DNA of 64,000 nt from the NCBI RefSeq assembly GCF_041248615.1, contig NZ_CP158426.1; one strand, written 5' to 3'. Made by a program: the position numbers and the translations under genes. A model generated the notes under the pieces. The model was not told the origin of the DNA. It was given only the letters and a program-made list of their open reading frames with translations, and made no database searches. Source of the DNA: Escherichia coli (GTDB taxonomy: Bacteria > Pseudomonadota > Gammaproteobacteria > Enterobacterales > Enterobacteriaceae). How positions within the stretch are numbered: position 1 is the stretch's first letter; each line of letters begins with the position of its first letter. Positions 1 to 17,257 of this stretch are shown one piece after another.

Positions 1-1117
1 TCGCCGCGAAACACTGGTAATCGGGCAGTATGGGCGTGACGGTATCAGCCTGGCAGAAGCGCGAGAAGAACTGATTGCTGCAAAGAAGCTGCTTAAAGCA
101 GGCCAGTCGCCGGCCGCGGCTAAACGTGACGGTATCAAAAAGATTCGTGGTGCCGAGACGTTTGCGGTACATACCGACAGTTATATGAAACACGTCATCC
201 TGGCTGAAAGTACCCGCGCAATGAAGCAGGCAGTGATCGACCGTGACATACTTCCGGTTCTTGGCAACAAAATGATGGCTGAAATTACCACATCGATGGT
301 TCGTGATTTGTGTGACCGGATTGTCGAACGCGGTGGTCGGGCAACAGCAGTACAGGCCAGGGAGATCATCAGCAGCGTATACCGTCACGCCAATGACCGT
401 GGTCATGGTTTGTTTAATCCTGCGGCTGACATTAAACCTTCGTCTATCGCCATATTTAAACCACGAGAGCGAACACTGACACCAGAAGAAATTGGTCTGT
501 TCTTCCGCACGCTGGATGCCATTGGTGCTATGGGCACTATGAAAATGGCTTTAAAGCTGGTGCTTATCACTATGGTCCGTAAAGGCGAATTCACCAATGC
601 AACGTGGGATGAAATAGATTTTAAAAAATGGACATGGACAATTCCTTCAGACCGCATGAAGGGAAGTCGGGCGCACGTTATTTACCTGCCTAAACAGGCA
701 CAGGATATATTAGTCGGGTTGCAGATGTGCGCTGGTGGAAGTGAATATCTGGTTCCTGGTCGTTACAATTTCCGGAAGCCATTATCTAATGCCGCGCTGA
801 ACTCTCTGATCGACAGAACGGTGAAAATAATAAATGAAGATGGTGAGCATATTCAGGACTTCACCGTACACGATATGCGCCGTACAGCCAGTACGTTGTT
901 GCATGAGGCTGGTTATCCTTCAGACTGGATTGAAAAGGCTCTGGCACATGAGCAGAAAGGTGTGCGCGCCGTATATAACAAAGCGGAATACGCCAGACAG
1001 CGCGCCTACATGTTGCAGCAGTGGGCCGATATGATTGATTCCTGGATTAACGGGGAGCATACGGATCTGATTCCGTTCTCCCCGTCGAAGTTTGAGAGGT
1101 GGATGGCGGGGGAATAA
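1..1117 (+). CDS. int: Tyrosine integrase (P4-like), 5'-partial
   Basis: Reading frame is open from window position 2 and continuous with ORF 185..1117; C-terminal catalytic region HDMRRT...VRAVYNKAEY...WAD typical of tyrosine recombinases. Confidence 0.88.
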   Translation, partial: RRETLVIGQYGRDGISLAEAREELIAAKKLLKAGQSPAAAKRDGIKKIRGAETFAVHTDSYMKHVILAESTRAMKQAVIDRDILPVLGNKMMAEITTSMVRDLCDRIVERGGRATAVQAREIISSVYRHANDRGHGLFNPAADIKPSSIAIFKPRERTLTPEEIGLFFRTLDAIGAMGTMKMALKLVLITMVRKGEFTNATWDEIDFKKWTWTIPSDRMKGSRAHVIYLPKQAQDILVGLQMCAGGSEYLVPGRYNFRKPLSNAALNSLIDRTVKIINEDGEHIQDFTVHDMRRTASTLLHEAGYPSDWIEKALAHEQKGVRAVYNKAEYARQRAYMLQQWADMIDSWINGEHTDLIPFSPSKFERWMAGE

Positions 1118-1120
1118 CGT

Positions 1121-1315
1121 TTAATTATTCTGCTGATTTTCTTCCATCTCGGCTTCTGCTGCCAGTGATTCAATTTTATCTGCGAATATTGCTGACAGTG
1201 TTGCAAATTCAGCATCAGTGACAGCGGGAATTGGAACAAACCTGATCCCGCTGTGTGCAAGCATGTTTGCAGTTTCAAGGCATTTCCTTAAATCTGCTGG
1301 TGATGCCCTGTTCAT
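1121..1315 (-). CDS. Hypothetical small protein (64 aa), start overlaps stop of methyltransferase gene (ATGA)
   Basis: In-frame ATG at 1315 overlapping MTase stop; the longer 104-aa ORF in the track is likely an overcall. Confidence 0.35.
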   Translation of the reverse strand: MNRASPADLRKCLETANMLAHSGIRFVPIPAVTDAEFATLSAIFADKIESLAAEAEMEENQQNN

Positions 1316-1962
1316 GCTGCACGCTCCCGCCCCTGGTTGTCTGTTGGTGACAGCGGAGCATTGCTGAATGCATTTGTTAATCTGGCAATATCCAACGCGT
1401 ATCCAGGGTGTAGTTGCACTGCCGGGTCTTCGCACTGATTACCCCAAACATCGAAACCATGAGACGACTGGCGGGCGAACAGTTCAATGCGAGAAACATC
1501 GCCTAACAATTGCACAAGTTTTTCACGAACGATATCTGGTTTTCTTGAATGCTCAAGCCGCGGTGCGGTAAATGACTGAACGATCCCTGCATTAATGCGC
1601 GTAGGTAGTTTTCCCTTTACCGCAAACAGGCAATCTTCACTATTGGCGCGAGTCATGTGCCCCATACCCATAACCAGTTTATCTGGTTGTCGACTACCAC
1701 ATTTTATCCACGTGAAGCCCTTCATCGTCATCAGACGAAATCCCCAGGCTTCAACAACTTTTAGTGCTTCGAGTGGTTGTGTTGGCACCCACCACATGGC
1801 CAACAGACAGTTTTCATCGGCCAAATCCCACACAGGAAGGCGGCAGATATCCATCACACTCATAACCGGATATTTAAAACCGGCACCGCGATTACCATCT
1901 GCGGCTTTGTCCCGGTATACCCAGGGTGGATCTGCATAGATTAGTGTGTATTTCTTAGTCAT
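1312..1962 (-). CDS. MT-A70 family DNA N6-adenine methyltransferase (orphan)
   Basis: Motif YADPPW near N-terminus (DPPW catalytic motif); no adjacent restriction endonuclease. Confidence 0.7.
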   Translation of the reverse strand: MTKKYTLIYADPPWVYRDKAADGNRGAGFKYPVMSVMDICRLPVWDLADENCLLAMWWVPTQPLEALKVVEAWGFRLMTMKGFTWIKCGSRQPDKLVMGMGHMTRANSEDCLFAVKGKLPTRINAGIVQSFTAPRLEHSRKPDIVREKLVQLLGDVSRIELFARQSSHGFDVWGNQCEDPAVQLHPGYALDIARLTNAFSNAPLSPTDNQGRERAA

Positions 1963-2661: not shown

Positions 2662-3543
2662 TTACATAGATGTTTCGTTTAATTCTTCCCGACGAACGCT
2701 GTAAACGTCGGTGGCTTTTGCCAGCAGTTCGTCATCATCTGAAAGTTTTTGTGCAATGTATTTGTAAGCCTTATCCAGTTCGGAGACAGTGCTGTAATTC
2801 ATCGCTGCGCTGGTAAAGGCCATCAGCATTTCTTCTGGATCACGGCTATCCGCTTTACGCGTTTGCTCATCATGCTTTTTCACTGGTTTAGCGTTGATCA
2901 GACTGTTCATTCCCGCAGCAGTAGTCGTTTGCGGAGTAATGTCTCGCTCAACGCGCGGTGCCGTTTCCTGTAATTCGTCAGGGGTGTAAACACCGAGAAG
3001 CACATCAGGAGCGTGCAGGCGAGCCCATCGTTTCGTGCAAAGATAGGCAAGCTGCTGGCGCGGATCCTGTTCCCACAATGGAGAGTTACGCACTCCGGCT
3101 TGCGCCATACTGATGGTAAGCTCACGGGGTTCTGCTTCTCCTTTAAGAACTGCTGACACAGTTACCGTCAGATTCGGTGATTTATCTGTTTTGCCGTTAA
3201 CATTCGACCAGTCACCGCTCCAGCGATAATTCAGGCGTGTCGCTAGCAGGCTGGAAGAGGATACGACCGCGTTTACCAACTGTGCTTCGTAGCCTAACGT
3301 TCCGTTTACCACATGCGTTTTCTGCGCCACGGCGAAAGGGTTCATTCCCCACTGTGCCGCCTGCATGGTCACCGCCAGACAATCGGCAGGTTTGCCTTCA
3401 AGATGTTTCGGTACAGTCGCTTTGCTTTGTGACATCAACTCCGCGAAACGCACCAGTTGATTCATGCCCTCGGGGCTGAAGATTGCCGCAGCAGTGCCTA
3501 CAGTTGCGCCTGGTTGTGATGTGATTGCGATATCATTGCTCAT
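2662..3543 (-). CDS. Single-strand annealing protein, Bet/RecT family
   Basis: 293 aa; GMNPF region and ERDITP motif shared with lambda Bet; immediately downstream of exonuclease gene with 4-nt overlap. Confidence 0.6.
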   Translation of the reverse strand: MSNDIAITSQPGATVGTAAAIFSPEGMNQLVRFAELMSQSKATVPKHLEGKPADCLAVTMQAAQWGMNPFAVAQKTHVVNGTLGYEAQLVNAVVSSSSLLATRLNYRWSGDWSNVNGKTDKSPNLTVTVSAVLKGEAEPRELTISMAQAGVRNSPLWEQDPRQQLAYLCTKRWARLHAPDVLLGVYTPDELQETAPRVERDITPQTTTAAGMNSLINAKPVKKHDEQTRKADSRDPEEMLMAFTSAAMNYSTVSELDKAYKYIAQKLSDDDELLAKATDVYSVRREELNETSM

Positions 3544-4361
3544 ACGTACATATCCTGTTTACGTGCCCAGTCAGGGCGTTTAATAATTTCCACGCCGCCC
3601 CATTCATCATTTATGCGGCATTCGTGATAGGTATTCAGATCCCGGCGGAACAGAGCGTGCCCGGCATCGACATCCGGCGCATCCAGCTCGAACACGCGTA
3701 CCGGATACCGACCACAATCAATGCTTTCGCTCACGGCAAGAAAGAAAAAACCATGCGGTTGACCAGTAACCCTCATTGCGCCTTCGCGGTACATTGCGTC
3801 CTGCACGTGGTAGCGGAATTCCTCGATGTGGCGTGCAAAACGGTCCATATCTGCAACCTTTTTCACGTCGACGATCACGTTGTGCTCGTTCAGCCATTTG
3901 TCTGGACGAATGCGGCACAACTCACCCGTCTCTTCATCGTTCCAGTACATTGATGCTTCGCAGTAACCAGGTGCTTCCAGCATCCAGCGTGCCGCCGGAT
4001 GAGCCATTGCGCTATCACGCATGAGCTCAAGTTTTCGCCACTGCTCGACATCAAGTACCGTAATACCCATATCCGCCACATCACGAAGAAATGCTTCTTC
4101 GTCAGCTTTACCTTGTTTTGTCCGACGATCGAATTTCGGTGAAACGATGAAGCGTTTGTCAAACTCTCCAGGTTCCAGAAGCAGACAGTGCAGAGCAGTA
4201 CCCATGTCCAGTGCAGACTTCTTCTCTTCGTCTTCCGGAGCAGCCTTCACCCATTTCAGAAGGGCAGGGTTCTTAGCCACCATATCTAGCTGCGACTTAC
4301 TCACGCCGTCACCGGCGTGGTAGTCCTCGTTGCTGATATCGAAATAAATTCCCGGATTCAT
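3540..4361 (-). CDS. PD-(D/E)XK exonuclease (RecE/YqaJ-like) partner of the annealase
   Basis: 273 aa; N-terminal ISNEDYHAG..SKSQL and RPDKW...VDVKK nuclease motif. Confidence 0.6.
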   Translation of the reverse strand: MNPGIYFDISNEDYHAGDGVSKSQLDMVAKNPALLKWVKAAPEDEEKKSALDMGTALHCLLLEPGEFDKRFIVSPKFDRRTKQGKADEEAFLRDVADMGITVLDVEQWRKLELMRDSAMAHPAARWMLEAPGYCEASMYWNDEETGELCRIRPDKWLNEHNVIVDVKKVADMDRFARHIEEFRYHVQDAMYREGAMRVTGQPHGFFFLAVSESIDCGRYPVRVFELDAPDVDAGHALFRRDLNTYHECRINDEWGGVEIIKRPDWARKQDMYV

Positions 4362-6301: not shown

Positions 6302-7117
6302 ATGAGCAGACATGCAACAGATTGGGCCTGGGAGACAGATCCAGGTAGCTCGTCATTAAAGCTCATACTGCTCTCGATGGCTGACAGAGCCGATGAATAT
6401 AACCTCTGCTACCCCAGCATAGAACGCCTCGTTAAAGACACTTGCCTGAATAAAAAAACCGTGCAGGCCGGGCTTATATCGCTCATGAAAATGGGGCTTA
6501 TTTCAGATACCGGAGAGAGAAAGGGGGCGACGAAAAGAGTACGGGTTTTCTCTCTTAATATAACCAAAAACGGGAACATTAAAGGCAACCGGGAGGGGGG
6601 TAATGAACCCGAAAACGGTAATGTTACCGAAAACGGGAATATACCCAAAAACGGGATGTTGAATGATCCCAAAAACGGGATGTTGAATGATCCCAAAAAC
6701 GGGATCCAGAACCAGTCATATAACCAGTCATTTAACCAAGAGAGGGAGAGCAGGACAAAAAGCGGGGATTCTGTGCCTCATGACCCCGGCGCAAACAACG
6801 CCGTGATGAATAACTTTGTTCCTCCTGGTGGGCCAGGGCAATTAGGCAAATTTGTCATGCATGAACAATGGCAGCCATCAGATGACTTTCTTCGGAAAAG
6901 CTCATTGCAGGGGATCTACCTGGACAGTCTGCCAACGGCACAGGAACTTGCAGAGTTCAGAATTTACTGGATGGCTGAGGGTAAGGCATACCATCAGGCA
7001 CAGTGGGAGCAGAAGCTGGCAAGGCGGCTGCAGATTAGCAGACAGAAGCAATCAACATTACCTGATAACAACGTTCCGCACTGGAACAGCCCTGAAGCAT
7101 GGGAGGATTTCTTGTGA
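6302..7117 (+). CDS. Replication initiator (O-like) with N-terminal HTH and DnaT-like C-terminal domain; contains origin iterons
   Basis: C-terminus GKFVMHEQWQPSDDFL...EFRIYWMAEGKAYHQAQWEQKLARRLQI resembles E. coli DnaT C-terminus; iteron array inside gene. Confidence 0.7.
   Translation: MSRHATDWAWETDPGSSSLKLILLSMADRADEYNLCYPSIERLVKDTCLNKKTVQAGLISLMKMGLISDTGERKGATKRVRVFSLNITKNGNIKGNREGGNEPENGNVTENGNIPKNGMLNDPKNGMLNDPKNGIQNQSYNQSFNQERESRTKSGDSVPHDPGANNAVMNNFVPPGGPGQLGKFVMHEQWQPSDDFLRKSSLQGIYLDSLPTAQELAEFRIYWMAEGKAYHQAQWEQKLARRLQISRQKQSTLPDNNVPHWNSPEAWEDFL
6564..6707. repeat. Iteron array (6 direct repeats CC(A/G)AAAACGG(G/T)A..., including a perfect 24-bp tandem duplicate 6644-6667 / 6668-6691); probable phage origin of replication
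   Basis: Direct repeats read in sequence inside the O-like gene, analogous to lambda ori within O. Confidence 0.6.
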
Positions 7118-7899
7118 ACAACGTTTTTACCGCGATACAAAACCGTGACGGAGAAGCCCTTTCTCGCATGTCAGGTTATGAGCATCAGTACGTCAACAAT
7201 GACAATGTGGTGAACATGTCAGCAGAGAGGCTTGTTGATGCCCTTTTTAAACAGCTGAAACAACTGTTTCCGGCGGCAGTGGTAACCAACCTGAAGACGC
7301 CAGAGCAGGAAGTTGCTGCAAAACAGCAGTGGATTGCTGCGTTTGCCGAAGGGGGGATCCGAACCCGTGAACAGGTTTCTGCTGGTATGCGCCACGCCCG
7401 CGCCAGTGAATCTCCGTTCTGGCCGTCTCCAGGGCAATTTATCAAGTGGTGCAAAGACAGCAAGATGGTTCTTGGCGTCACCATTGACGATGTGATGGCG
7501 GAGTTTCACCGGTACAGCAAGGAAAAAAGTTTATATCCTGGTGGTCCCGAAAGATTCCCGTGGCGACATCCGGTTATGTACTGGGTCGTATGTGATACCC
7601 GCCGTGCAATGTATCAGCGCCAGCTTAGCGAGATTGAGGTTGAGAAACACGCGCGCAGGCTGCTCGATGATTGGGCGAAAAAGGTGGCTTCCGGACAGCA
7701 GATACCCGATCCGGTGATCAGCATACAGGCAAAGCCAGAACCCATGAGTACACCTCCGGACACAGGGAGAGACGTTTACCATCCACCAGGGCGAAGTTTC
7801 GGGTGCATGCCTAACGCCGCCACCCTTGGGGGAATAACACCGGCGCAGTGGCTGATGGAGGAATACAGGCGGGGAAAGGCGGCAGGATTTATCAAGTAA
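7099..7899 (+). CDS. Replication protein P-like helicase loader
   Basis: Segment QQWIAAFAEGGIRTREQVSAGMRHARASESPFWPSPGQFIKWC aligns with lambda P (RRQWVLAFRENGITTMEQVNAGMRVARRQNRPFLPSPGQFVAWC); true start may be slightly downstream of 7099. Confidence 0.75.
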   Translation: MGGFLVNNVFTAIQNRDGEALSRMSGYEHQYVNNDNVVNMSAERLVDALFKQLKQLFPAAVVTNLKTPEQEVAAKQQWIAAFAEGGIRTREQVSAGMRHARASESPFWPSPGQFIKWCKDSKMVLGVTIDDVMAEFHRYSKEKSLYPGGPERFPWRHPVMYWVVCDTRRAMYQRQLSEIEVEKHARRLLDDWAKKVASGQQIPDPVISIQAKPEPMSTPPDTGRDVYHPPGRSFGCMPNAATLGGITPAQWLMEEYRRGKAAGFIK

Positions 7900-7936
7900 T
7901 ACCAGCGCGATAGCGCATTTTTTTACGCCTCGACAA

Positions 7937-8013
7937 TTACCTGTTAGGTAATAAAATATTCTAAAATCTATTGATTTCGTGTCTTATGTGGTTTTTAATT
8001 ACCTCAGAGGTAA
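7937..8013. promoter_or_regulatory. Two operator-like palindromes TTACCTGTTAGGTAA (7937-7951) and TTACCTCAGAGGTAA (7999-8013) flanking TTATGTGGTT motif
   Basis: Perfect TTACC-N5-GGTAA sites in gap between P-like gene and next gene; second site ends 3 bp before ATG 8017. Confidence 0.5.
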
Positions 8014-8016
8014 ATC

Positions 8017-8370
8017 ATGAGAAAACAGATACAGGCTCTTGGTCGACTCAAAACAGGTCAGATGAACAAAACAGAATCTGCGTATTGCCAGCACCTTGAG
8101 CTGCGTAAACGTGCAGGAGAAATCGTCTGGTATCGATTTGAGGGTATCAAGCTGCGGTTAGCTGACAACTGCTTCCTGACTGTAGATTTTGCCGTGATGT
8201 TGGCTGACGGGCAGTTGGTGATGGTGGACGTTAAGGGAAGTAAGTCAGTCTTTACTGACGATGCGAGAGTCAAGATGAAGGTTGCGGCAGACAGCTATCC
8301 GTTTGTCTTTCAGGTTGCTTATCCAAAACCTAAAAAGCTCGGTGGTGGATGGGAGGTTGAGGAACTATGA
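8017..8370 (+). CDS. Hypothetical protein, DUF1064-like, possible PD-(D/E)XK nuclease fold
   Basis: 117 aa; D...VDVKG motif; family assignment from memory only. Confidence 0.45.
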   Translation: MRKQIQALGRLKTGQMNKTESAYCQHLELRKRAGEIVWYRFEGIKLRLADNCFLTVDFAVMLADGQLVMVDVKGSKSVFTDDARVKMKVAADSYPFVFQVAYPKPKKLGGGWEVEEL

Positions 8371-8975
8371 GCGAGAAGCCCAATGCTGCGGGATTGATTG
8401 TATCCGGTGATAAAAACCCGAATTGGAAGGGTGGGAAAATCGAAAAGGTTTGTTCCGTATGTGGCAGGCAATATCAGGTTAAGCGAGCCAACTCATCTTC
8501 AAGGTTCTGCTCACTTCAGTGTGTAGGAATTTCACAGCGAGGCAAGACGGTAAATCGGGAACTAAAGCGAGTATTAAAAATATGCTGCGTATGCGGATCT
8601 TCGTTCTCCGTTTTCTTGAGTCATGAGAAGCGTCATAAATGCTGCTCGAAACAGTGTTCCAACATAATGCGTTCTTCTCTGATGAAGGGGGAAGGAAATC
8701 CAAACTGGTCTGGTGGATTATCGAGATTGCCGTATCCGTGGGATTTCCGAGAAACGAGCAAGAGGGTTATTGAGCGAGATGGTTTTACTTGTCAGAACCC
8801 AGGTTGTGATGGAACAGACAAAAGGCTAACAACTCATCACATCAATTACGACAAGCAAGACTGTCGTCAGGAGAACCTTATTTGCCTTTGTTCGAGCTGT
8901 AACTCGAAGGCTAATTTCGGTCGGCATAAGTGGCAAAAGTTTTATGAATCACTGATGAAAAATAGATCGGCATGA
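8367..8975 (+). CDS. HNH endonuclease with two N-terminal zinc-ribbon-like modules
   Basis: 202 aa; C-terminal HHINYDKQDCRQENLICLCSSCNSKAN (HNH motif); two CxxC...C..C clusters. Confidence 0.7.
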   Translation: MSEKPNAAGLIVSGDKNPNWKGGKIEKVCSVCGRQYQVKRANSSSRFCSLQCVGISQRGKTVNRELKRVLKICCVCGSSFSVFLSHEKRHKCCSKQCSNIMRSSLMKGEGNPNWSGGLSRLPYPWDFRETSKRVIERDGFTCQNPGCDGTDKRLTTHHINYDKQDCRQENLICLCSSCNSKANFGRHKWQKFYESLMKNRSA

Positions 8976-9036
8976 ATCGACGATCTTTTTAGTTATCAAT
9001 GTAATCAATAAGTTATGCGGATAAGCGAGGGTAAAG

Positions 9037-9618
9037 ATGGAAAGTAATATCAAAGGGTTAGTTGCCGCCGGGCATGAGATGGCTTCGGAACTGAAAGCAG
9101 AATGTGGTGCCGTTGATATGCGTAGTGTGGCAAAGCTGATCAGCGATTTGGCAACGCAACTGGAAGTGCAACTGGTGCGTGCTAATGCGCTGGCCGAAGA
9201 CCAACAGAAAGCGATTGAGTCAATTAAGCAGGCTGATTCGGCTGTTAAGTTGGCACACGAGAAGTTTTCGGCGCTGGCAGCGGAGAATGCAAAGCTGAAG
9301 AAGTTCTGCAAAGACGCTGCATTCGATGCCGATTACGAAGCAGAGCTAGGTATGGAGAGAGGTGGATTCAGTGATGCGCTTAACGAAATCAAAACCCCAG
9401 CCACCGATGCTTTCCTGGCTGAAGTGCGGGCGCAGGGCGTGGATGCTGCTATAGAAGCTGCAAAAAATCTGGTGGCCCAAGAATATGAGTATAAGGATTT
9501 CAAAGCGGCGCAGAGTGATTGCTGTATGCACCCTGGTTCAGACCTGGTAGGGAAGGTTGAAATAACTGAGTGGTTAGTTGACTTTGCTGCCCAGCTTCGC
9601 AAAGGAGGCAACCAGTGA
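9037..9618 (+). CDS. Hypothetical coiled-coil protein
   Basis: 193 aa, alanine/glutamate-rich heptad-like stretch; no motif recognised. Confidence 0.45.
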   Translation: MESNIKGLVAAGHEMASELKAECGAVDMRSVAKLISDLATQLEVQLVRANALAEDQQKAIESIKQADSAVKLAHEKFSALAAENAKLKKFCKDAAFDADYEAELGMERGGFSDALNEIKTPATDAFLAEVRAQGVDAAIEAAKNLVAQEYEYKDFKAAQSDCCMHPGSDLVGKVEITEWLVDFAAQLRKGGNQ

Positions 9619-10100
9619 CTGGACATGCAGCAATCCTCGACATGTGCTGTGGCAGTCGCATGTTCTGGTTCGATAAGAATGACGACCGGGCGATATTTAG
9701 CGATATCAGAAAGGAAGAGCACACATTGTGTGATGGACGACGGCTGATAATTAGCCCTGACCTGATAGCAGATTTTCGTGCATTACCATTTGCAGACGCA
9801 TCGTTTCCGGTTGTTGTATTCGACCCTCCGCATCTTGAGCGTGTTGGTGATAACGCTTGGATGGGAAAGAAATATGGACGGCTGAATAAAGATACCTGGC
9901 GTGATGATTTGCAGCAGGGATTTAAAGAAGCCTTTCGTGTGTTGTGGCCATACGGCGTTCTGATTTTTAAATGGAATGAAACGCAAATACCTGTTCGCCA
10001 AATATTGGCACTGACCGACAGAAAGCCTGTTATCGGTCAACGAACAGGAAAGGGTGACAAGACCCACTGGATTATTTTTATGAAGGAGGGCAACCAGTGA
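9615..10100 (+). CDS. Small SAM-dependent DNA methyltransferase (DPPH motif; N6-A or N4-C)
   Basis: 161 aa; motif I-like ILDMCCGSRMF and motif IV VVVFDPPH; GTG start overlapping upstream stop. Confidence 0.55.
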   Translation: MTGHAAILDMCCGSRMFWFDKNDDRAIFSDIRKEEHTLCDGRRLIISPDLIADFRALPFADASFPVVVFDPPHLERVGDNAWMGKKYGRLNKDTWRDDLQQGFKEAFRVLWPYGVLIFKWNETQIPVRQILALTDRKPVIGQRTGKGDKTHWIIFMKEGNQ

Positions 10101-10864
10101 GCAAAATTGACTATCAGGCACTGCGTGAAAAGGCAGAGAAAGCAACGTGTGGTGTGTGGTCGCTCGAATATGGAGAGAGCCGATTTGATTGTGATGATGC
10201 GCTAATTCATCGTGACGTTGTTGGATATCTTCCCATTTGCAGAATTGAAGGAGCGCATCCTGAAAGCGGTTTCGATGAAGATTTCCAGATGGAACAGCAG
10301 GCCAATGCTGAATTTATTGCTGCCTTTAATCCAAAGGTTGCTTTGGCACTACTGGATGAACGGAAAAAAAACCAGCAATACATCAAATCCCGCGACCAGG
10401 AGAACGAGGATATTGCGCTAACGGTAGGGAAGCTGCGCGTTGAGCTGGAAGCAGCAAAAAAGCGCATAGCAGAACTGGAGAAAAGCGAAGAGCAACTCAT
10501 CAACGAGCGTGACCATGCTGAGTCTGCTTTAGCTGATATGTACTTTGCAGCAACCGGGGATAGGCCTGAGTGGAGTAACTGGTTCGGCTTTTCAGATGCC
10601 GTCGATGCCGTAGTTGACAGAATTGCTGATTTAGAAGCTAAACAATGCATTGAAGAGATGAGTAAACAAAGTTGCGAAGCTCGGGAGCGTGATTTGTTTG
10701 AATCATGGGTAATGCATTCAATTTGTATTTCCAAATCGACGCTTGAAGGATTGCGCACCGAAACTGGATACCGTAACGCGACCTTATCAGGAACAGACTT
10801 CAACCGCATGTGGGAACAATGGAAATCTATCCGCGCCGCTGGCATTCGCATCAAAGGAGAGTGA
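10097..10864 (+). CDS. Ead/Ea22-like early protein
   Basis: 255 aa; N-terminus MSKIDYQALREKAEKATCGVW resembles Ea22-like prophage proteins (memory-based); central coiled coil. Confidence 0.5.
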   Translation: MSKIDYQALREKAEKATCGVWSLEYGESRFDCDDALIHRDVVGYLPICRIEGAHPESGFDEDFQMEQQANAEFIAAFNPKVALALLDERKKNQQYIKSRDQENEDIALTVGKLRVELEAAKKRIAELEKSEEQLINERDHAESALADMYFAATGDRPEWSNWFGFSDAVDAVVDRIADLEAKQCIEEMSKQSCEARERDLFESWVMHSICISKSTLEGLRTETGYRNATLSGTDFNRMWEQWKSIRAAGIRIKGE

Positions 10865-10865
10865 T

Positions 10866-11414
10866 ATGACCACTATAACCGATAAGAAACAGTATCCCAG
10901 CGAGCAATATCTTAATGAGCTGATCACCAACATAGAGTTTGCTGCAAGGGCACCAGTTGAAGTCGTGAGAGCGATGGCAGCAGAGCTACAGAAGCGGCGC
11001 GAAGCTGATAGTGCAGAACCTGCAAGTAATCATGAAGAGTTGCCGCTTGATTATCTCCAAGGTCAAAAAGATGGTCTTGAATGGGCTGCGCAGCTTGCAG
11101 AAGCAAATCACCCACAAACTGGCGACTGGCTTTACGATGACCCGCTGGAGCTGGCTAAAGCTATCAGAAAAGGTCCTGACATGCCCGAATTCGATGGACC
11201 AACTCCGGTAACTCCGGATGGTTGGATAAGCTGTAGTGAGCGAATGCCCGCTCAAGATGATTGGATTTTAATTTATTCAAAGCACGGCGAGTATATGGCA
11301 GGACAGGTACAAGGGGAATACGTGGAGTTGAGCGACGGCACTTTATCGTGGTTAGGGAACGCCTTGTACTGGATGCCTCTACCGGAACCGCCGCAGGAGG
11401 TTAACCGTGGCTAA
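10866..11414 (+). CDS. DUF551-like protein
   Basis: C-terminal WISCSERMP...ALYWMPLPEPP resembles DUF551 signature; ATG 10866 immediately after upstream stop (track ORF start 10743 rejected). Confidence 0.5.
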   Translation: MTTITDKKQYPSEQYLNELITNIEFAARAPVEVVRAMAAELQKRREADSAEPASNHEELPLDYLQGQKDGLEWAAQLAEANHPQTGDWLYDDPLELAKAIRKGPDMPEFDGPTPVTPDGWISCSERMPAQDDWILIYSKHGEYMAGQVQGEYVELSDGTLSWLGNALYWMPLPEPPQEVNRG

Positions 11415-11688
11415 CCTGCAACTAGCCGTTAAAGGTGAATACTTCGATGCCATCATTCGCGGAGAGAAAACGGAAGAGTATCGCCTGTGTAATGACTACT
11501 GGAATAAGCGAATTATGTTCAGGGATTATGACCGACTGATTATCACAAAGGGATATCCGAAGCGCGACGACTCCAGTCGTAGAATTGACGTCCCGTATGA
11601 CGGATATGAAATCAAGACAATCACACATCCCCACTTCGGCGATAAACCGGTAAAGGTATACGCGATAAAGGTAAATATTGATGGCTAA
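11407..11688 (+). CDS. ASCH-domain-like protein
   Basis: 93 aa; GEKTEEYR resembles ASCH GxKTxExR motif. Confidence 0.45.
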   Translation: MANLQLAVKGEYFDAIIRGEKTEEYRLCNDYWNKRIMFRDYDRLIITKGYPKRDDSSRRIDVPYDGYEIKTITHPHFGDKPVKVYAIKVNIDG

Positions 11689-12019
11689 ATCAGCAGCAGA
11701 GCGCAAAGCCGCTCAGAGAGCCAGACAAGCTGCATCTGGTGTGCGTAAGCTGGAGATTGTGCTTGATGCTCAGGAAATTGAAATGCTGGAGCGTAACTGC
11801 GCCGCCCGGCGCCCTGGTCGAGATCCCTATGAAATGGCCGAGTACATCGCGCTGCTGATCCGCCAGGATGATGCCCGGGTGCGCGGGCGTATAAAATCGA
11901 TCAGCAGAAAACGTTGCGGTAAGTGCGGCGAGAGAGTTCCAGTTAATTCATGCCCGTGCAATGGTGACTCGCAATGCTGGGTGACTAAAGGCTGGCATGA
12001 AACGAAATTAATAGTGTGA
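11678..12019 (+). CDS. Hypothetical protein with C-terminal Cys cluster (CGKCG...CPCNGDSQC); candidate regulator
   Basis: 113 aa; stop codon TGA lies inside palindrome GTGACATGTCAC; last gene before packaging module. Confidence 0.45.
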   Translation: MMAKSAAERKAAQRARQAASGVRKLEIVLDAQEIEMLERNCAARRPGRDPYEMAEYIALLIRQDDARVRGRIKSISRKRCGKCGERVPVNSCPCNGDSQCWVTKGWHETKLIV

Positions 12020-12027
12020 CATGTCAC
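12016..12027. repeat. 12-bp perfect palindrome GTGACATGTCAC (copy 1 of 3)
   Basis: Exact palindrome read in sequence; overlaps stop of upstream gene; terminator 41 bp downstream. Confidence 0.9.
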
Positions 12028-12068
12028 GAGTAGATTATGCATGATGAATTTGATGTGTTTTGAATACT

Positions 12069-12094
12069 GCCGCCAACTATGGCGGCTTTATTTT
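12069..12094 (+). terminator. Rho-independent terminator between early/middle genes and packaging module
   Basis: Stem GCCGCCA/TGGCGGC, loop ACTA, followed by TTTATTTT. Confidence 0.7.
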
Positions 12095-12105
12095 GCATGG
12101 TACTA

Positions 12106-12120
12106 TTACCACAACGGTAA
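12106..12120. promoter_or_regulatory. Operator-like palindrome TTACCACAACGGTAA upstream of terS (weaker second site 12124-12138)
   Basis: Perfect half-sites, 18 bp upstream of terS ATG. Confidence 0.5.
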
Positions 12121-12137
12121 CTATTACCACGGTGGTT

Positions 12138-12734
12138 ATGATGCCTGCTGAACCTAAAACCTATAAACGCAAATCAACGCAATTTAAGCCACTAACAGCA
12201 ATGCAGGAGGCTTATTGCCAGTCATACATCAAAACGCCTGAAAACCAGACTCAGGCAGCGATTAACGCAGGATTCTCCCCAAATACAGCGGCAGTTAAAG
12301 CCAGTGTCATGATGCGCGATGAACGCATTCAAAAACGGATTGCCGAGTTGATGGAGGAGCGCAACAAACGAATGCGCGTCAGTGCTGATTACGTTCTCAT
12401 GCGCCTGGTGGAGATCGACCAGATGGACGTGATCGATATCCTCAACGACGATGGGAGCCTTAAACCAATCCGTGAGTGGCCGAAAATCTGGCGCACTACG
12501 CTTAGTGGCTTTGATCTGTCATCGACCATCATGAACATGAACGAGGATTCGATAGAGACAATCCTCAAAAAAATTAAATGGCCTGACAAGGTGAAGAACC
12601 TCGAACTGATTGGTAAGCACGTCGACGTCAACGCATTCAAAGAACGCCTGGATGTTAATGTGAATGTGACAATTGCTGATCGCATAGCGGCAGCCAGGAA
12701 GAGACTGAAAGAACGTCAGGATGGCAATCAGTGA
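12138..12734 (+). CDS. Terminase small subunit
   Basis: LTAMQEAYCQSY...QTQAAINAGFSPNTAAVKAS...RIQKRIAEL resembles small-terminase family signature; track start 12060 lies inside terminator hairpin and is rejected. Confidence 0.75.
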   Translation: MMPAEPKTYKRKSTQFKPLTAMQEAYCQSYIKTPENQTQAAINAGFSPNTAAVKASVMMRDERIQKRIAELMEERNKRMRVSADYVLMRLVEIDQMDVIDILNDDGSLKPIREWPKIWRTTLSGFDLSSTIMNMNEDSIETILKKIKWPDKVKNLELIGKHVDVNAFKERLDVNVNVTIADRIAAARKRLKERQDGNQ

Positions 12735-14206
12735 CAGATACAGCGTTATCTCCTGAAGAGCAGTTAATCGAGGATATTGCAGGGTTCACTCACGATCCGC
12801 TTGGCTATGCCCTCTATGCGTTCCCGTGGGGGGAAGAGGGTACTGAACTGGCACATGCCACCGGTCCACGTCAGTGGCAGGCCGATGCGTTCCGAGAGAT
12901 ACGTGATCACCTGCAGAATCCAGAGACGCGATATCAGCCGCTTATGCTGGCACGTGCTTCTGGTCACGGTATTGGTAAATCCGCATTCATCTCAATGCTG
13001 ATCAACTGGGGCATGTCCACTTGCGAGGATTGTAAGGTCGTGGTGACCGCCAACACCGACAACCAGCTACGAACGAAGACCTGGCCGGAAATTATCAAGT
13101 GGTCGAACCTTGCTATCACGAAAGACTGGTTTACCTGTACCGCTACCGCGATGTACAGCAATGACCCTGGGCACGACAAGCGGTGGCGAGCTGACGCAAT
13201 CCCCTGGTCTGAGCACAACACTGAGGCATTCGCCGGACTACACAACGAGCGCAAACGCATCATCGTGGTATTCGACGAAGCATCCAACATTGCCGATCTG
13301 GTGTGGGAGGTAGCAGAGGGTGCGCTGACGGACGAAGACACTGAGATTATCTGGGTGGCATTCGGAAACCCTACACGTAACACCGGGCGTTTCCGCGAAT
13401 GTTTCCGCAAATATAAACACCGCTGGAAAACTGCGCAGATTGACAGCCGGACGGTGGAAGGCACTAACAAACAGCAGTTGCAGAAATGGGTTGATGACTA
13501 CGGGGAAGACAGCGACTTCGTTAAAATCCGTGTGCGCGGCATATTCCCGGATGCATCTGAATTGCAGTTTATCCCTACCGGCCTTACTGACGAGGCAATG
13601 AAACGGGTGGTAACCGCTGCGCAGGTTGCACATGCTCCGGTGATAATCGGCGTTGACCCGGCATACTCCGGCGTTGATGACGCTGTGATATACCTGCGGC
13701 AGGGGCTGCACAGTAAGGTGCTATGGACTGGTAACAAGACCACCGACGATCTGATTATGGCGAAGCGTATCGCTGACTTTGAAGACCAGTACCAGGCTGA
13801 CGCAGTGTTCATCGACTTCGGTTACGGAACTGGTCTGAAGTCAATCGGTGATGGCTGGGGACGTACATGGCAACTTGTTCCGTTCAGCGGTGCGTCCACT
13901 GACCCGCAGATGCTTAACAAGCGTGGGGAGATGTTCAACTCATGCAAGACATGGCTGAGGCTGGGCGGCATGCTGGATGACCAGGAAACAGCAGACGACC
14001 TGTCGGCGGCAGAGTACAAAGTTCGAGTGGACGGTAAAATCGTTATCGAACCGAAGGAAGATATCAAGGAGCGGCTTGGGCGTTCTCCTGGTAAAGGCGA
14101 TGCGCTACTGCTGACGTTTGCGTTCCCTGTGTCGAAGCGTCTGCGAATTCCCGGGCAGCAGAACCAGCAAGGCAAGGCCATCACAGATTACGATCCATAT
14201 GCTTAA
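12731..14206 (+). CDS. Terminase large subunit
   Basis: 491 aa; Walker A-like ARASGHGIGKS; ATPase and nuclease-type layout; overlaps terS stop. Confidence 0.85.
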   Translation: MTDTALSPEEQLIEDIAGFTHDPLGYALYAFPWGEEGTELAHATGPRQWQADAFREIRDHLQNPETRYQPLMLARASGHGIGKSAFISMLINWGMSTCEDCKVVVTANTDNQLRTKTWPEIIKWSNLAITKDWFTCTATAMYSNDPGHDKRWRADAIPWSEHNTEAFAGLHNERKRIIVVFDEASNIADLVWEVAEGALTDEDTEIIWVAFGNPTRNTGRFRECFRKYKHRWKTAQIDSRTVEGTNKQQLQKWVDDYGEDSDFVKIRVRGIFPDASELQFIPTGLTDEAMKRVVTAAQVAHAPVIIGVDPAYSGVDDAVIYLRQGLHSKVLWTGNKTTDDLIMAKRIADFEDQYQADAVFIDFGYGTGLKSIGDGWGRTWQLVPFSGASTDPQMLNKRGEMFNSCKTWLRLGGMLDDQETADDLSAAEYKVRVDGKIVIEPKEDIKERLGRSPGKGDALLLTFAFPVSKRLRIPGQQNQQGKAITDYDPYA

Positions 14207-14280
14207 TCCGCTGGTGGGGATAATACTGCTGATATCCTCTGGTGAGGATAAAACAAAGCCAGCTCATCGGCTGGCTGTTT

Positions 14281-14292
14281 GTGACATGTCAC
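14281..14292. repeat. 12-bp palindrome GTGACATGTCAC (copy 2 of 3)
   Basis: Exact; 4 bp past stop of minus-strand gene 14297..14653 and directly followed (minus orientation) by hairpin AGCCAGC/GCTGGCT plus T-run. Confidence 0.9.
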
Positions 14293-14296
14293 GGTG

Positions 14297-14653
14297 TTAT
14301 TGCTCGCTTAACTTCTGCTTCAGCAAGTAACCTTCGAGCATCCAGATTTTGTTTACAGCATTCTGCCGGGCAATCTTCCGACCAATTTCTGCATCAAAAT
14401 TTTCCGGACTTGCACAGGCACTCTCTCCGGTGACGGTGAAGCCATTCTTCAGTACCAATACGCAGAAAGTCAGGAGGTCTGTAGATTTATGCGCTGTCCA
14501 TGAATCGCCAACACCCATATTGGCAGCACGAATGCCGTCATAAGCAGTAAAGAAATGCTCTTCAAGAATGATGCTTTCGATATATTGAGGCGTAACGCGC
14601 GGTGCCGTTTTGCCTTTCTCAACGATTTCTTTTTCGATTTGCTGGTCGTTCAT
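14297..14653 (-). CDS. Hypothetical moron protein, antisense to virion genes
   Basis: 118 aa ORF with SD AAGGTGAG upstream of ATG; lies between terL and portal on opposite strand with own terminator; family unknown. Confidence 0.5.
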   Translation of the reverse strand: MNDQQIEKEIVEKGKTAPRVTPQYIESIILEEHFFTAYDGIRAANMGVGDSWTAHKSTDLLTFCVLVLKNGFTVTGESACASPENFDAEIGRKIARQNAVNKIWMLEGYLLKQKLSEQ

Positions 14654-14766
14654 AATCTCACCTTAAAAAAATGCCCGGCGAACCTGGCGAACTGGAAGCA
14701 ATGAGTTATGCCTTCCGTGGCTGTACGGGTTTACAGCATGAAGTCATCGCAATGGCGTCCTGCTGT

Positions 14767-14809
14767 AAAAAAGGGCGGTGATAGTCCTTCAAGGGAAACT
14801 ATCACCGCC
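14767..14809 (-). terminator. Rho-independent terminator downstream of tRNA-Arg
   Basis: 12-bp perfect stem GGCGGTGATAGT/ACTATCACCGCC with A-run on plus strand (T-run on minus). Confidence 0.7.
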
Positions 14810-14852
14810 AAGCCCCTGGAACTTCTGGCATCACGGTCCTTAGGCGTGATTC

Positions 14853-14929
14853 TGGCGTGGCATGCAGGATTCGAACCTGCGACCAACCGCTTAGAAGGCG
14901 GTTGCTCTGTCCGACTGAGCTAATGCCAC
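14853..14929 (-). tRNA. tRNA-Arg (anticodon UCU), phage-encoded
   Basis: 77 nt; reverse complement GTGGCATTAGCTCAGTCGGACAGAGCAACCGCCTTCTAAGCGGTTGGTCGCAGGTTCGAATCCTGCATGCCACGCCA; 7-bp acceptor stem, T-loop GGTTCGAATCC, anticodon loop CTTCTAA, encoded CCA; close to E. coli argU in layout. Confidence 0.85.
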
Positions 14930-15251
14930 AACGCTGAGAGCACTTAGCCTGTTAAGGCGCCACACTTTGTCGCGGCTCCATAAATGCTCTCATCGTTGTA
15001 CCCTCGTCTCTTCCGAGGCGTCACACCGAATCGCCGGGATGGTGAATCCCCGTGCGCGGAATAAAACCGCTCGACTTGCACATTCCGGCTACCTGGTTCG
15101 TTTGCCCGAGCAAGGGAGGGTGCCCCTTAAACGTATCCAGACCGCTATCGGCGCATGTGCCATACACCGTACTGCTCAAAATAAAATCTCACTCCACCTG
15201 TTCAATTTAACGACAGGCCAGTCAGGTTAGTAACCGGAATGAACTCTTTGG

Positions 15252-15266
15252 TTACCTGAAAGGTAA
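15252..15266. promoter_or_regulatory. Operator-like palindrome TTACCTGAAAGGTAA upstream of head gene cluster, followed by ATATGTGGTT-N5-GGTAAT (15309-15329)
   Basis: Perfect TTACC-N5-GGTAA; downstream motif shared with tailspike upstream region. Confidence 0.5.
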
Positions 15267-15356
15267 TAATTTGTGCGTTAAATGTCAACTGTCTACGATA
15301 AATAAATCATATGTGGTTAAATTGGTAATAATTTAATTGCGTACGGAGTCATTGAT

Positions 15357-15563
15357 ATGTGCATGGGTAGCTCACCATCAGTGCCTGCAACACCAGAAGT
15401 TCAGGCAGCACCACAGGAGCAGGATGCCGCCGTTGTTGATGCCCGCGACGAAGAAACTCGTCGCCGTCGCGCTGCTGCTGGTCGTAGTTCTACGCTGCTT
15501 ACCGGTTCTCAGGGCGACACATCAACCGCTAATACCAGCGGTAAAACGCTGCTTGGTCAGTAA
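15357..15563 (+). CDS. Small Ala/Arg-rich head-module protein
   Basis: 68 aa; shares translation initiation context CGGAGTCATTGA(T/A)ATG with portal gene. Confidence 0.4.
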   Translation: MCMGSSPSVPATPEVQAAPQEQDAAVVDARDEETRRRRAAAGRSSTLLTGSQGDTSTANTSGKTLLGQ

Positions 15564-15577
15564 CCGGAGTCATTGAA

Positions 15578-17257
15578 ATGGCGGAAACAACTAAAGAGCG
15601 ATTGAACAAACAGTTCGCACAACTTGAAAGCGAGCGTCAGTCGTTCGAGCCGCACTGGCGCGAGTTGAGTGATTACATCAACCCACGTGGTTCCCGCTTT
15701 CTGACTTCTGAGGTCAACCGTAACGATCGACGCAATACACGCATTATTGATTCGACCGGGACTATGGCGGCGCGCACTCTCGCCAGCGGCATGATGTCAG
15801 GCATCACAAGCCCCGCGCGTCCGTGGTTTCGCCTGGCTACGCCAGATCCTGAAATGATGGATTATGGCCCTGTTAAGTTGTGGCTTGAGGCAGTTCAGAA
15901 CCGCATGAACGATATGTTCAATAAGTCGAATCTCTACCAGTCTCTTCCGCAGTTATACGGAAGCCTCGGCACATACAGCACTGGTGCAATGGCAGTGCTG
16001 GAGGATGACGAGGACATCATTCGCACAATGCCATTCCCGATAGGCAGTTACTACCTGGCTAACTCACCTCGTGGCAGTGTTGACACCTGTTTTCGCAAGT
16101 TCTCTATGACTGTTCGTCAGCTTGTTCAGGAGTTCGGGCTAAATAACGTCAGCGAATCCGTAAAAAGCATGTGGGAAAGCGGCACCTACGAGAAGTGGAT
16201 CGAAGTGATGCATTCGGTTTACCCGAACATTGACCGCGATACATCGAAGCTGGATAGCAAGAACAAGCCATTCAAATCGGTTTATTACGAGGTTGGTGGA
16301 GATAACGACAAGTTGTTGCGTGAGTCCGGATTCGATGAGTTTCCAATTATGGCTCCGCGCTGGGAAGTTAACGGCGAAGATGTTTATGGATCATCATGCC
16401 CGGGTATGCTGGCGCTTGGACCTGTTAAGGCATTGCAGCTTCTCCAGAAGCGCAAGTCGCAGTTGATTGATAAAGCCACCAATCCGCCGATGGTTGCTCC
16501 GACTTCCCTCAAGAATCAGCGCGCCTCCCTTCTTCCTGGCGACATCACGTATATCGATCAGATTACTGGTCAGGATGGCTTCAGGCCTGCTTATCTGGTT
16601 AACCCCAGTACAGCAGATTTGGTGGCAGACATTCAGGACACTCGTCAAATCATTAACAGCGCCTACTTTGTCGATCTGTTCATGATGTTGCAGAACATCA
16701 ATACCCGCTCGATGCCTGTTGAAGCGGTGATCGAAATGAAAGAAGAAAAACTTCTGATGTTGGGGCCGGTTCTGGAGCGTCTGAACGACGAATGTCTTAA
16801 TCCTCTCATTGACCGCGCTTTCTCGATGATGGTGCGCAAAAACATGCTGCCGCCACCGCCTGACGCGATGGAAGGCATGCCCCTGAAGGTCGAATACATT
16901 TCCGTCATGGCTCAGGCGCAGAAGTCTATCGGCCTGTCCAGTCTGGCGTCCACGGTTAACTTCATTGGTCAACTTGCGCAAGCGAAACCAGAAGCTCTCG
17001 ACAAACTCAACGTTGATCAGGCGATCGATGCATTCGCTGATATGTCCGGAGTGTCTCCAACCGTCATTGTTCCGCAGGAACAGGTTGAGCAGGCTCGCCA
17101 GCAACGGGCACAGCAACAACAGCAGCAACAAATGATGGCGATGGGGATGGCGGCGGCACAGGGGGCCAAGACGCTAAGCGAAGCTAAAACTTCGGATCCG
17201 AGTGTGTTGTCAGCTATGGCGAATGCAGTTAGTGGTCAGGGTGGGCAATCACAATGA
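15578..17257 (+). CDS. Portal (head-to-tail connector) protein, podovirus type
   Basis: 559 aa, position after terL, C-terminal Q-rich tail; resembles T7 gp8-type connector by recollection. Confidence 0.75.
   Translation: MAETTKERLNKQFAQLESERQSFEPHWRELSDYINPRGSRFLTSEVNRNDRRNTRIIDSTGTMAARTLASGMMSGITSPARPWFRLATPDPEMMDYGPVKLWLEAVQNRMNDMFNKSNLYQSLPQLYGSLGTYSTGAMAVLEDDEDIIRTMPFPIGSYYLANSPRGSVDTCFRKFSMTVRQLVQEFGLNNVSESVKSMWESGTYEKWIEVMHSVYPNIDRDTSKLDSKNKPFKSVYYEVGGDNDKLLRESGFDEFPIMAPRWEVNGEDVYGSSCPGMLALGPVKALQLLQKRKSQLIDKATNPPMVAPTSLKNQRASLLPGDITYIDQITGQDGFRPAYLVNPSTADLVADIQDTRQIINSAYFVDLFMMLQNINTRSMPVEAVIEMKEEKLLMLGPVLERLNDECLNPLIDRAFSMMVRKNMLPPPPDAMEGMPLKVEYISVMAQAQKSIGLSSLASTVNFIGQLAQAKPEALDKLNVDQAIDAFADMSGVSPTVIVPQEQVEQARQQRAQQQQQQQMMAMGMAAAQGAKTLSEAKTSDPSVLSAMANAVSGQGGQSQ

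Follow-up and report, generated by a model that had tools for sequence, protein, structure and literature searches.

What is a short sequence for when it is repeated at two successive gene boundaries: translation, the exchange of genes between phages, or both? This question is raised by a locus in a 64,000-nucleotide (nt) stretch of Escherichia coli DNA (contig NZ_CP158426.1, RefSeq assembly GCF_041248615.1; the whole stretch is called the window here). An eae-like gene, a small methyltransferase gene and an Ead/Ea22-like gene follow one another in this locus, and the same junction of 16-17 nt, referred to below as the linker, joins the first to the second and the second to the third. The repetition was picked out in a first-pass annotation of the window, which put forward the shuffling of gene cassettes by means of a conserved linker. 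From comparisons with related prophages, viral contigs and complete genomes, we consider it probable that the linker is a translation-initiation and coupling junction which also serves as microhomology for the gain, loss and exchange of cassettes.

Both linker copies (coordinates are listed in Table 1) follow the formula AGGAGG + (G) + CAACCAGTGA, with the core AGGAGGCAACCAGTGA(G). In the 5' copy the GTG starts the methyltransferase gene and the TGA stops the eae-like gene, and in the 3' copy the TGA stops the methyltransferase gene and the GTG starts the Ea22-like gene. The exact 12-mer GGCAACCAGTGA occurs at 9607-9618 and 10089-10100, in each case at an overlapping stop and start, and the upstream proteins end in LRKGGNQ and FMKEGNQ, so that the first-pass annotation was right about the shared junction and about the GGNQ/EGNQ termini. 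Compared in frame, AAAGGAGGCAACCAGTGA and AAGGAGGGCAACCAGTGA are identical at 15 of 18 positions; when one inserted G is allowed for, 17 bases match. The gene models on either side agree with the program-made list of open reading frames (ORFs) and with the RefSeq annotation. The arrangement is that of a coupled junction, with a Shine-Dalgarno (SD) sequence, a spacer and a stop/start overlap (AGGAGG-CAACCA-GTGA in the 5' copy and AGGAGG-GCAACCA-GTGA in the 3' copy), and the C-terminal K-G-G and K-E-G residues of the upstream proteins are encoded by the SD itself.

Stop/start overlaps give translational coupling. No promoter-like site was found in 8900-12015, the single such site in 8900-12800 lying at 12016, away from the linkers; no terminator-like hairpin was found at the linkers, and no Rfam match in 7000-17000 except a tRNA. 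The AGGAGG would act as a strong SD, separated by 6-7 nt from a GTG whose bases overlap the preceding stop, and because this strong SD and the GTGA overlap lie in a promoter-less and terminator-less block, the small ORFs are predicted to be translated by coupling, each to the ORF that precedes it.

A repeat of this length might be thought accidental. When up to one mismatch was allowed, the 12-mer had three matches against 0.24 expected, and three matches were reached in 0 of 100 shuffles; the terS/terL junction CAGGATGGCAATCAGTGA, not mentioned in the first-pass annotation, supplies the third of them. Exact 12-nt repeats do arise by chance at this scale, since another one, AACGCATTCAAA, occurs at 12322 and 12630 in the same 3.9 kb, and a 12-nt repeat alone is for this reason weak evidence. 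The significance of the linker rests instead on its identical register at two consecutive stop/start overlaps and on the comparative data described below, which show the element conserved in phages and prophages, hundreds of sequences in all. These data refute chance, which we regard as having a practically negligible probability.

Twelve syntenic E. coli prophages that share the frame from DUF1064 to terS were selected by the similarity of their flanks and not by the linker (loci are cited by number, as L002). The first-pass annotation had called for an alignment across related prophages, and this alignment places the linker at a boundary with varying gene content in all of them. The eae-like gene ends in CGCAAAGGAGGCA(A/G)CCAGTGA, or in a variant with 1-3 mismatches, in 12 of 12 loci. 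What follows is the Ea22 head (GTGAGCAAGATTGACTATCAGGC) in six loci (L003, L006, L008, L010, L011 and L013), a methyltransferase gene in four (L002, L005, L007 and L009), a DUF7446 gene in L012 and an ORF of 103 aa in L004; the Ea22-like head itself, MSKIDYQALRE, is conserved. The methyltransferase gene is missing with a clean single-linker junction in L003, L008, L010 and L013, and L010 corresponds to the window minus 9619-10100 (148 of 150 nt identical on the left and 143 of 150 on the right). The methyltransferase cassette of the window would accordingly be read as a body (9619-10082) plus one linker copy, together 9619-10100. Where a cassette is inserted, its 3' end brings a second copy of the linker. 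In L012 the identical 16-mer stands on both sides of the DUF7446 cassette, whose ORF crosses the 3' linker in a different frame and reaches its stop 10 nt beyond, within the Ea22 head (ending in KQEATSEQD). Indels between close relatives are bounded by linker copies that flank small accessory ORFs. Shuffling was expected to be contradicted if the linker were not conserved at variable-cassette boundaries in relatives; among the syntenic loci it is conserved there.

A second set of loci was collected through the methyltransferase protein, independently of the linker. In this set, methyltransferase bodies 94-99% identical to that of the window lie between unrelated neighbours: the 60 nt just 5' of the 5' linker, or the stretch 61-120 nt past the 3' linker, are often 47-62% identical to the window, where about 50% is expected of unrelated sequence. 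Homology of the flanks extends to the left only, to the right only, to both sides or to neither, and in L249, L250-252 and L260-262 similarity to the window begins or ends only a few bases from the linker, beyond which the sequence is unrelated; L260-262 carry a non-Ea22 gene (MSNYLY...) after the 3' linker. A search with 601 nt against 5426 complete E. coli genomes gave matches to the linker-methyltransferase region in 1653 of them, with the methyltransferase cassette present at a coverage of at least 80% in 831 (about 15%). Rows taken at even intervals along the ranking have match ends at query positions 59-62 (where the 5' linker ends) and 542 (where the 3' linker ends), and match starts at 524 (where the 3' linker begins). 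Ends of high-scoring segment pairs pile up at 9610-9629 (54) and starts at 10080-10099 (110).

The methyltransferase alleles also show how the gene termini relate to the junction. Alleles that lack the extra G (L257, L258, L263, L267 and L268) read through the linker and encode 164 aa ending in FMKEATSEQD or in a close form with EQN, and the extra G of the window is a 1-nt indel that places the methyltransferase stop on the linker TGA (KEGNQ versus KEATSEQD). Linker copies that do not serve as a start are degenerate (AGGAAGCGACCAGTGGGTAA, AAATAGGCATCCAGTGAG); cryptic prophages, those of O157 among them, have such copies as well. The methyltransferase of O157:H7 EC4115 and of further E. coli cryptic prophages (L329, 1248-1692; L330, 1222-1695) is a pseudogene with an internal stop or a frameshift, still located between intact or degenerate linker copies. 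More distant methyltransferase homologues (82-87% identical) are found without the linker; their tails are KGGVA, KGGAK, KEAA and KD, with ATGA or GTGA overlaps, and their N-termini before ILDMCCG differ too. What is conserved in the methyltransferase itself is therefore a core extending from ILDMCCG to HWIIF(V/M)K, and its terminal codons are part of the junction. This carries a warning for annotation, namely that a few codons at either end of these small genes have to be assigned to the junction and not to the gene family. Neither the methyltransferase nor the eae-like protein matched a named NCBIfam family.

The breadth of the linker was examined by a scan of IMG/VR for AGGAGGN{0,1}CAACCAGTGA, which found it in at least 120 viral contigs. 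The listed viral contigs, the syntenic loci and the window together made up 141 instances. Five loci (L014, L017, L019, L035 and L045) were rejected as true linkers, being chance 16/17-mers in unrelated contigs, and were left out of the count of families. Among the matches listed, the upstream ORF stops on the linker TGA in 107 of 141 instances (tails in GGNQ) and runs in the +1 frame to a stop 10 nt later in 26 (ending in EATSEQD or EATSERN), arrays of 2-4 linkers are present, and the 17-nt form with the extra G occurs only behind the methyltransferase. Since upstream genes pass through the linker in two frames, its conservation is at the level of DNA and not of protein. The exact 16-mer was found in at least 31 combinations of upstream and downstream families, about 29 of them phage-type once the chance matches were dropped, and the families that flank it are unrelated by Pfam. 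Upstream families include eae-like genes with several different tails, the methyltransferase, DUF7446, DUF1627/HTH, Lar, DUF4406 and others; downstream families include Ea22-like, the methyltransferase, DUF7446, DUF7739 and five without a Pfam match. With one representative per combination, the fraction of the commonest base falls to 0.3-0.7 within a few bases outside the 16-mer. The junction is present in HK620 (between hkaH and hkaG), HK629, mEp, Stx1/Stx2 phages, P22-like Salmonella phages, epsilon15 and phiV10. The linker is a shared gene-junction module found throughout the accessory 'ea-type' block of lambdoid, P22-like and epsilon15-like phages of E. coli, Shigella and Salmonella. The proposal of cassette shuffling through a conserved linker gains support from the approximately 29 unrelated family combinations and from homology that ends at the linkers, recombination being deduced from these patterns.

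These data bear directly on a purely functional explanation. A coupled junction needs AGGAGG, a spacer of 5-8 nt and an overlapping NTGA, and copies could have become alike by convergence on these needs, with no bearing on recombination. Ribosome binding alone does explain the AGGAGG part, and distant methyltransferase homologues have other SD-encoding tails without the linker. The 3' ends of DUF551 and DUF4752, each followed by ASCH, offer a picture of pure functional similarity: they share AGGAGG-N6-GTGGCTAA but their spacers differ (TTAACC versus AAGGTC), and in AAGGAGGAAGGTCGTGGCTAA of DUF4752 as against CAGGAGGTTAACCGTGGCTAA of DUF551 only the SD and the start are common. The contrast with these genes strengthens the view that the eae/methyltransferase linker is shared DNA, for here about 29 unrelated family combinations, in two frames, have the same spacer CAACCA and the same G after it, an identity that translation does not need. 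Unused linker copies, moreover, persist as decaying vestiges, and alleles that cleanly have or lack a cassette are distinguished by exactly that cassette and one linker. Functional convergence does not account for the identity of spacer and register in the E. coli/Salmonella gene pool, and convergence as the sole explanation is quite improbable.

The terS/terL junction, which resembles the linker yet is constant, also fits convergence. Its sequence CAGGATGGCAATCAGTGA matches the linker of the ea region at 15 of 17 positions, and in a scan of viral contigs for AGGATGGYAATCAGTGA the same terS and terL were joined in 129 of 132 instances. It was rejected as a third linker, being a constant junction with no sign of shuffling; its resemblance may reflect convergence or old ancestry. 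Other gene ends in this region recur as well (window 10840-10870, 11390-11415 and 11670-11690, + strand; L003-L012). Ea22 genes end in GGCATTCGCATCAAAGGAGAGTGA(t/g)ATG (GGCATTCGCATCAAAGGAGAGTGAtATG) before different genes, and CAGGAGGT(G/A)AAGTGATG is the end common to DUF551 and an unrelated 70-aa gene. An optional DUF4752 cassette occurs between DUF551 and ASCH, and an optional 70-aa gene before terS.

A further pair of similar initiation contexts, CGGAGTCATTGA(T/A)ATG, had been set beside the linker in the first-pass annotation. The two copies are exact and lie at 15344 and 15565, 3-4 nt from the positions first given for them; they do not mark a variable-cassette boundary, because the gp3-like gene between them is constant. 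The gp3-like and portal genes occur together in every epsilon15-like phage and prophage examined, and the CGGAGTCATTGAWATG pair was rejected as a cassette boundary on this ground. In phiV10-like phages the two copies do not differ. Both copies in Enterobacter phage Tyrion have T in place of A at the position 3 nt before the ATG (CATTGTT/CATTGTC), and no likeness is seen between the two regions of epsilon15 or of a Klebsiella phage (relatives L326-L328 compared). This suggests lineage-specific homogenisation by local gene conversion, or matched translation strength, and not cassette exchange.

How might the linker act in exchange? Because 16-17 nt recur between many unrelated ORFs, the linker can act as a direct repeat where one genome holds several copies, and different genomes have it in common as a short identical stretch. 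Deletion is favoured by short direct repeats, through annealing or slippage. Recombination at such a stretch, whether homologous, by single-strand annealing or by copy choice, would delete, insert or exchange whole ORF cassettes and would leave each gene with an intact SD, start and stop. The prophage encodes a RecT-family annealing protein and a PDDEXK exonuclease (2662-4361), a candidate pair for short-homology recombination that might itself act on the linker. RecET recombines homologies of 5-13 bp at low frequency (PMC2327257), and phage Rad52-like and RecT-type proteins recombine short or diverged homologies (PMC2327257, PMC3945230).

Several observations weigh against this interpretation. 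We infer a crossover inside the 16-17 nt from where homology stops. Most loci of the motif survey were ascertained via the motif itself, which is not true of the syntenic set, the methyltransferase-anchored set or the genome search. A homology of 16 bp lies below the range of efficient RecA-dependent recombination, and events at the linker should therefore be rare, or should need replication slippage or annealing proteins of the phage. Beside the linker, about 30-60 nt of the eae tail and of the Ea22 head are conserved too, and many exchanges may therefore use this longer homology and not the linker core. Strong pile-ups of breakpoints also lie inside genes, at about 9390, 9440, 10140, 10340, 10450 and 11200-11240; because many mosaic breakpoints are intragenic, the linker is one exchange route among several.

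Some of these observations lend weight to the main alternative, which overlaps with the favoured interpretation and is not exclusive of it. Here the linker would be a passive relic, the initiation region of an ancestral, tandemly duplicated Ea22-type gene whose bodies were later replaced by illegitimate recombination, while present exchange would proceed via the longer flanks (eae tail, Ea22 head) or by illegitimate events filtered by selection. Tandem Ea22-like paralogues, each after a linker, are common (L030, L098, L116 and L107), conservation of the eae tail and Ea22 head past the linker and frequent intragenic breakpoints are as this alternative would have them, and eae-like and Ea22-like proteins match the same PHROGs (phrog_250 and phrog_368). 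These matches fall in different parts of the two proteins, which are domain mosaics from a common module pool. The breakpoints at the linker in L249, L250-252 and L260-262 speak against a relic, as do the upstream families U4-U7 and U17; in all of these, flanking homology of greater length is absent on that side. Taken as a whole, this explanation is in our view rather unlikely.

A dedicated mobility mechanism would make the linker the specific site of a recombinase or a target-site duplication, in cassettes of an integron-like, transposon-like or homing kind. A short site repeated between promoter-less ORFs, in arrays of up to four, is superficially integron-like, and a free-standing HNH ORF (8367-8975) lies 640 nt upstream. 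The linker nevertheless has no dyad symmetry and no stable hairpin, and local RNA folds are ordinary (z from -1.1 to +1.2, with -1.1 and -0.7 at the linkers); the tyrosine integrase is the only integrase of the prophage; and the methyltransferase cassette, a single ORF, lacks both terminal inverted repeats and a transposase. A target-site duplication should give identical repeats, but a 1-nt indel sets the two linker copies apart. The same linker is found in separate phage groups with differing backgrounds (HK620, Stx, P22-like and epsilon15-like), and the HNH gene is absent from many linker-cassette loci (L005, L007, L009 and L012). We consider dedicated mobility very improbable. A bolder version of the favoured interpretation would see a pan-enterobacterial 'plug-and-play' system, in which annealing proteins such as RecT excise single ORFs as circles and re-insert them at any other linker of any prophage in the same cell. 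We give this version only a small chance of being right; were it true, SD, start codon and, in either of two frames, C-terminal tail would all come from the linker, which would be a translational-signal analogue of an integron array without a dedicated integrase.

Roughly the first 39 kb of the window look like a prophage. To judge from its sequence, this prophage is of the epsilon15/phiV10-like type (Uetakevirus), because 15300-15760 is 99.6% identical to phage phiV10; it also encodes an epsilon15-type portal and GP7 capsid protein, together with lambda-P-type replication genes. Small co-directional accessory genes form a block between the replication genes and terS, and the linkers are located in this block. 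The HNH ORF overlaps the DUF1064 stop by ATGA and is present in some syntenic prophages and absent in others. In loci without it the 3' half of DUF1064 differs, identity collapsing after about nt 150, and the right boundary lies exactly at the stop codon (TGA followed by ATCGACGATC). This pattern of polymorphism is typical of a free-standing homing endonuclease with a co-converted flank, which the HNH ORF may putatively be. Between terL and the gp3-like and portal genes, a Gp49-family gene and a tRNA-Arg(TCT) gene lie on the opposite strand (14297-14929, -). The segment resembles a moron-like insertion into the late region; in relatives Gp49 is replaced by DUF2829 or is missing.

Table 1. Coordinates of the linker copies, look-alike junctions and selected genes in the window
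Feature	Position	Strand	Remarks
Tyrosine integrase	185-1117		Sole integrase in prophage
MT-A70 family methyltransferase	1312-1962	-	Second methyltransferase of the prophage
RecT-family annealing protein	2662-3543	-	Pfam RecT 8e-32
PDDEXK exonuclease	3540-4361	-	Pfam DUF3799 1e-21
DUF1064	8017-8370	+	
HNH-endonuclease ORF	8367-8975	+	202 aa; phrog_1271 3.7e-23; weak Pfam HNH_3, below threshold; unannotated in RefSeq
eae-like gene	9037-9618	+	Conserved 3' tail AAQLRKGGNQ, ending in linker
5' linker copy AAAGGAGGCAACCAGTGA	9601-9618	+	SD AGGAGG 9603-9608; 6-nt spacer; GTG 9615-9617; TGA 9616-9618
S-adenosylmethionine (SAM)-dependent (DNA) methyltransferase	9615-10100	+	161 aa; RefSeq annotation; phrog_954 DNA methyltransferase 9e-88
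Methyltransferase cassette body	9619-10082	+	Motifs ILDMCCGS and FDPPH
3' linker copy AAGGAGGGCAACCAGTGA	10083-10100	+	Same element plus one extra G; GTG 10097-10099
Ead/Ea22-like gene	10097-10864	+	Start codon in 3' linker; Pfam Ead_Ea22 3.8e-31, match from residue 2
DUF551	10866-11414	+	
ASCH	11407-11688	+	
Regulator-like protein	11681-12019	+	112 aa
terS	12060-12734	+	
terS/terL look-alike CAGGATGGCAATCAGTGA	12717-12734	+	Upstream protein ends in RQDGNQ; GTG start of terL
terL	12731-14206	+	GTG start
CGGAGTCATTGATATG	15344-15359	+	Initiation region of 68-aa gp3-like gene (phrog_831; ATG 15357)
CGGAGTCATTGAAATG	15565-15580	+	Initiation region of portal gene (ATG 15578)

Four known systems are useful for comparison. 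Integron arrays, like the linker cassettes, consist of promoter-less ORFs parted by a recurring short site; unlike attC, the linker is not an imperfect palindrome, has no accompanying IntI, lies inside coding sequence and doubles as a ribosome binding site. Translationally coupled overlaps (ATGA/GTGA) share with it the 4-nt GTGA overlap and a strong SD within the last codons of the upstream gene. In ordinary coupled junctions the spacer sequence varies between gene pairs, whereas the whole linker junction is identical between unrelated pairs. PeSL cassettes of T4-type phages are units of an early promoter and a stem-loop terminator that flank small non-essential ORFs, and recombination between PeSL copies explains the insertion, deletion and replacement differences of close relatives (Arbiol et al. 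2010, PMC2839356; PMC4122927); PeSL mini-circles have been shown in these phages (PMC2839356). As in the PeSL regions, repeated short expression signals flank small accessory ORFs in a plastic region, and indels are bounded by the copies. The linker differs in being a translational signal (SD plus start/stop overlap) of 16-17 nt with no promoter and no hairpin.

The closest parallel is the lambdoid boundary-sequence model. According to PMC2327257 and PMC3029335, short conserved boundary sequences were proposed to target homologous swapping of modules in lambdoid phages (modular theory of Susskind and Botstein; Clark et al. 2001), and HK620 is the phage in which boundary linkers were proposed (Clark et al. 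2001, as cited there). As in that model, a gene-boundary sequence is common to related temperate phages while the flanking genes are non-homologous, breakpoints coincide with it, and the phages concerned form a pool that meets in the same hosts; HK620 itself has the present junction. It has been debated whether phage mosaics originate by homologous exchange at short boundary sequences or by random illegitimate joints filtered by selection, and boundary sequences are reported to be impossible to find at most mosaic junctions (PMC3029335). For the boundary-sequence route the locus is a case of unusual clarity, abundance and testability, with one defined 16-mer, clean presence/absence alleles, natural contexts in the hundreds and, as its cassette, an orphan DNA methyltransferase; it could be used as a model substrate in measurements of short-homology recombination by RecT-, Erf- and Red-type proteins of phages. 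The linker is a clear and ordinary case of the known model and not a new kind of system; what is added here are the approximately 29 family combinations, including those of epsilon15-like podovirus prophages, the reading of the junction in two frames, and a 1-nt indel by which the tail of the methyltransferase is switched.

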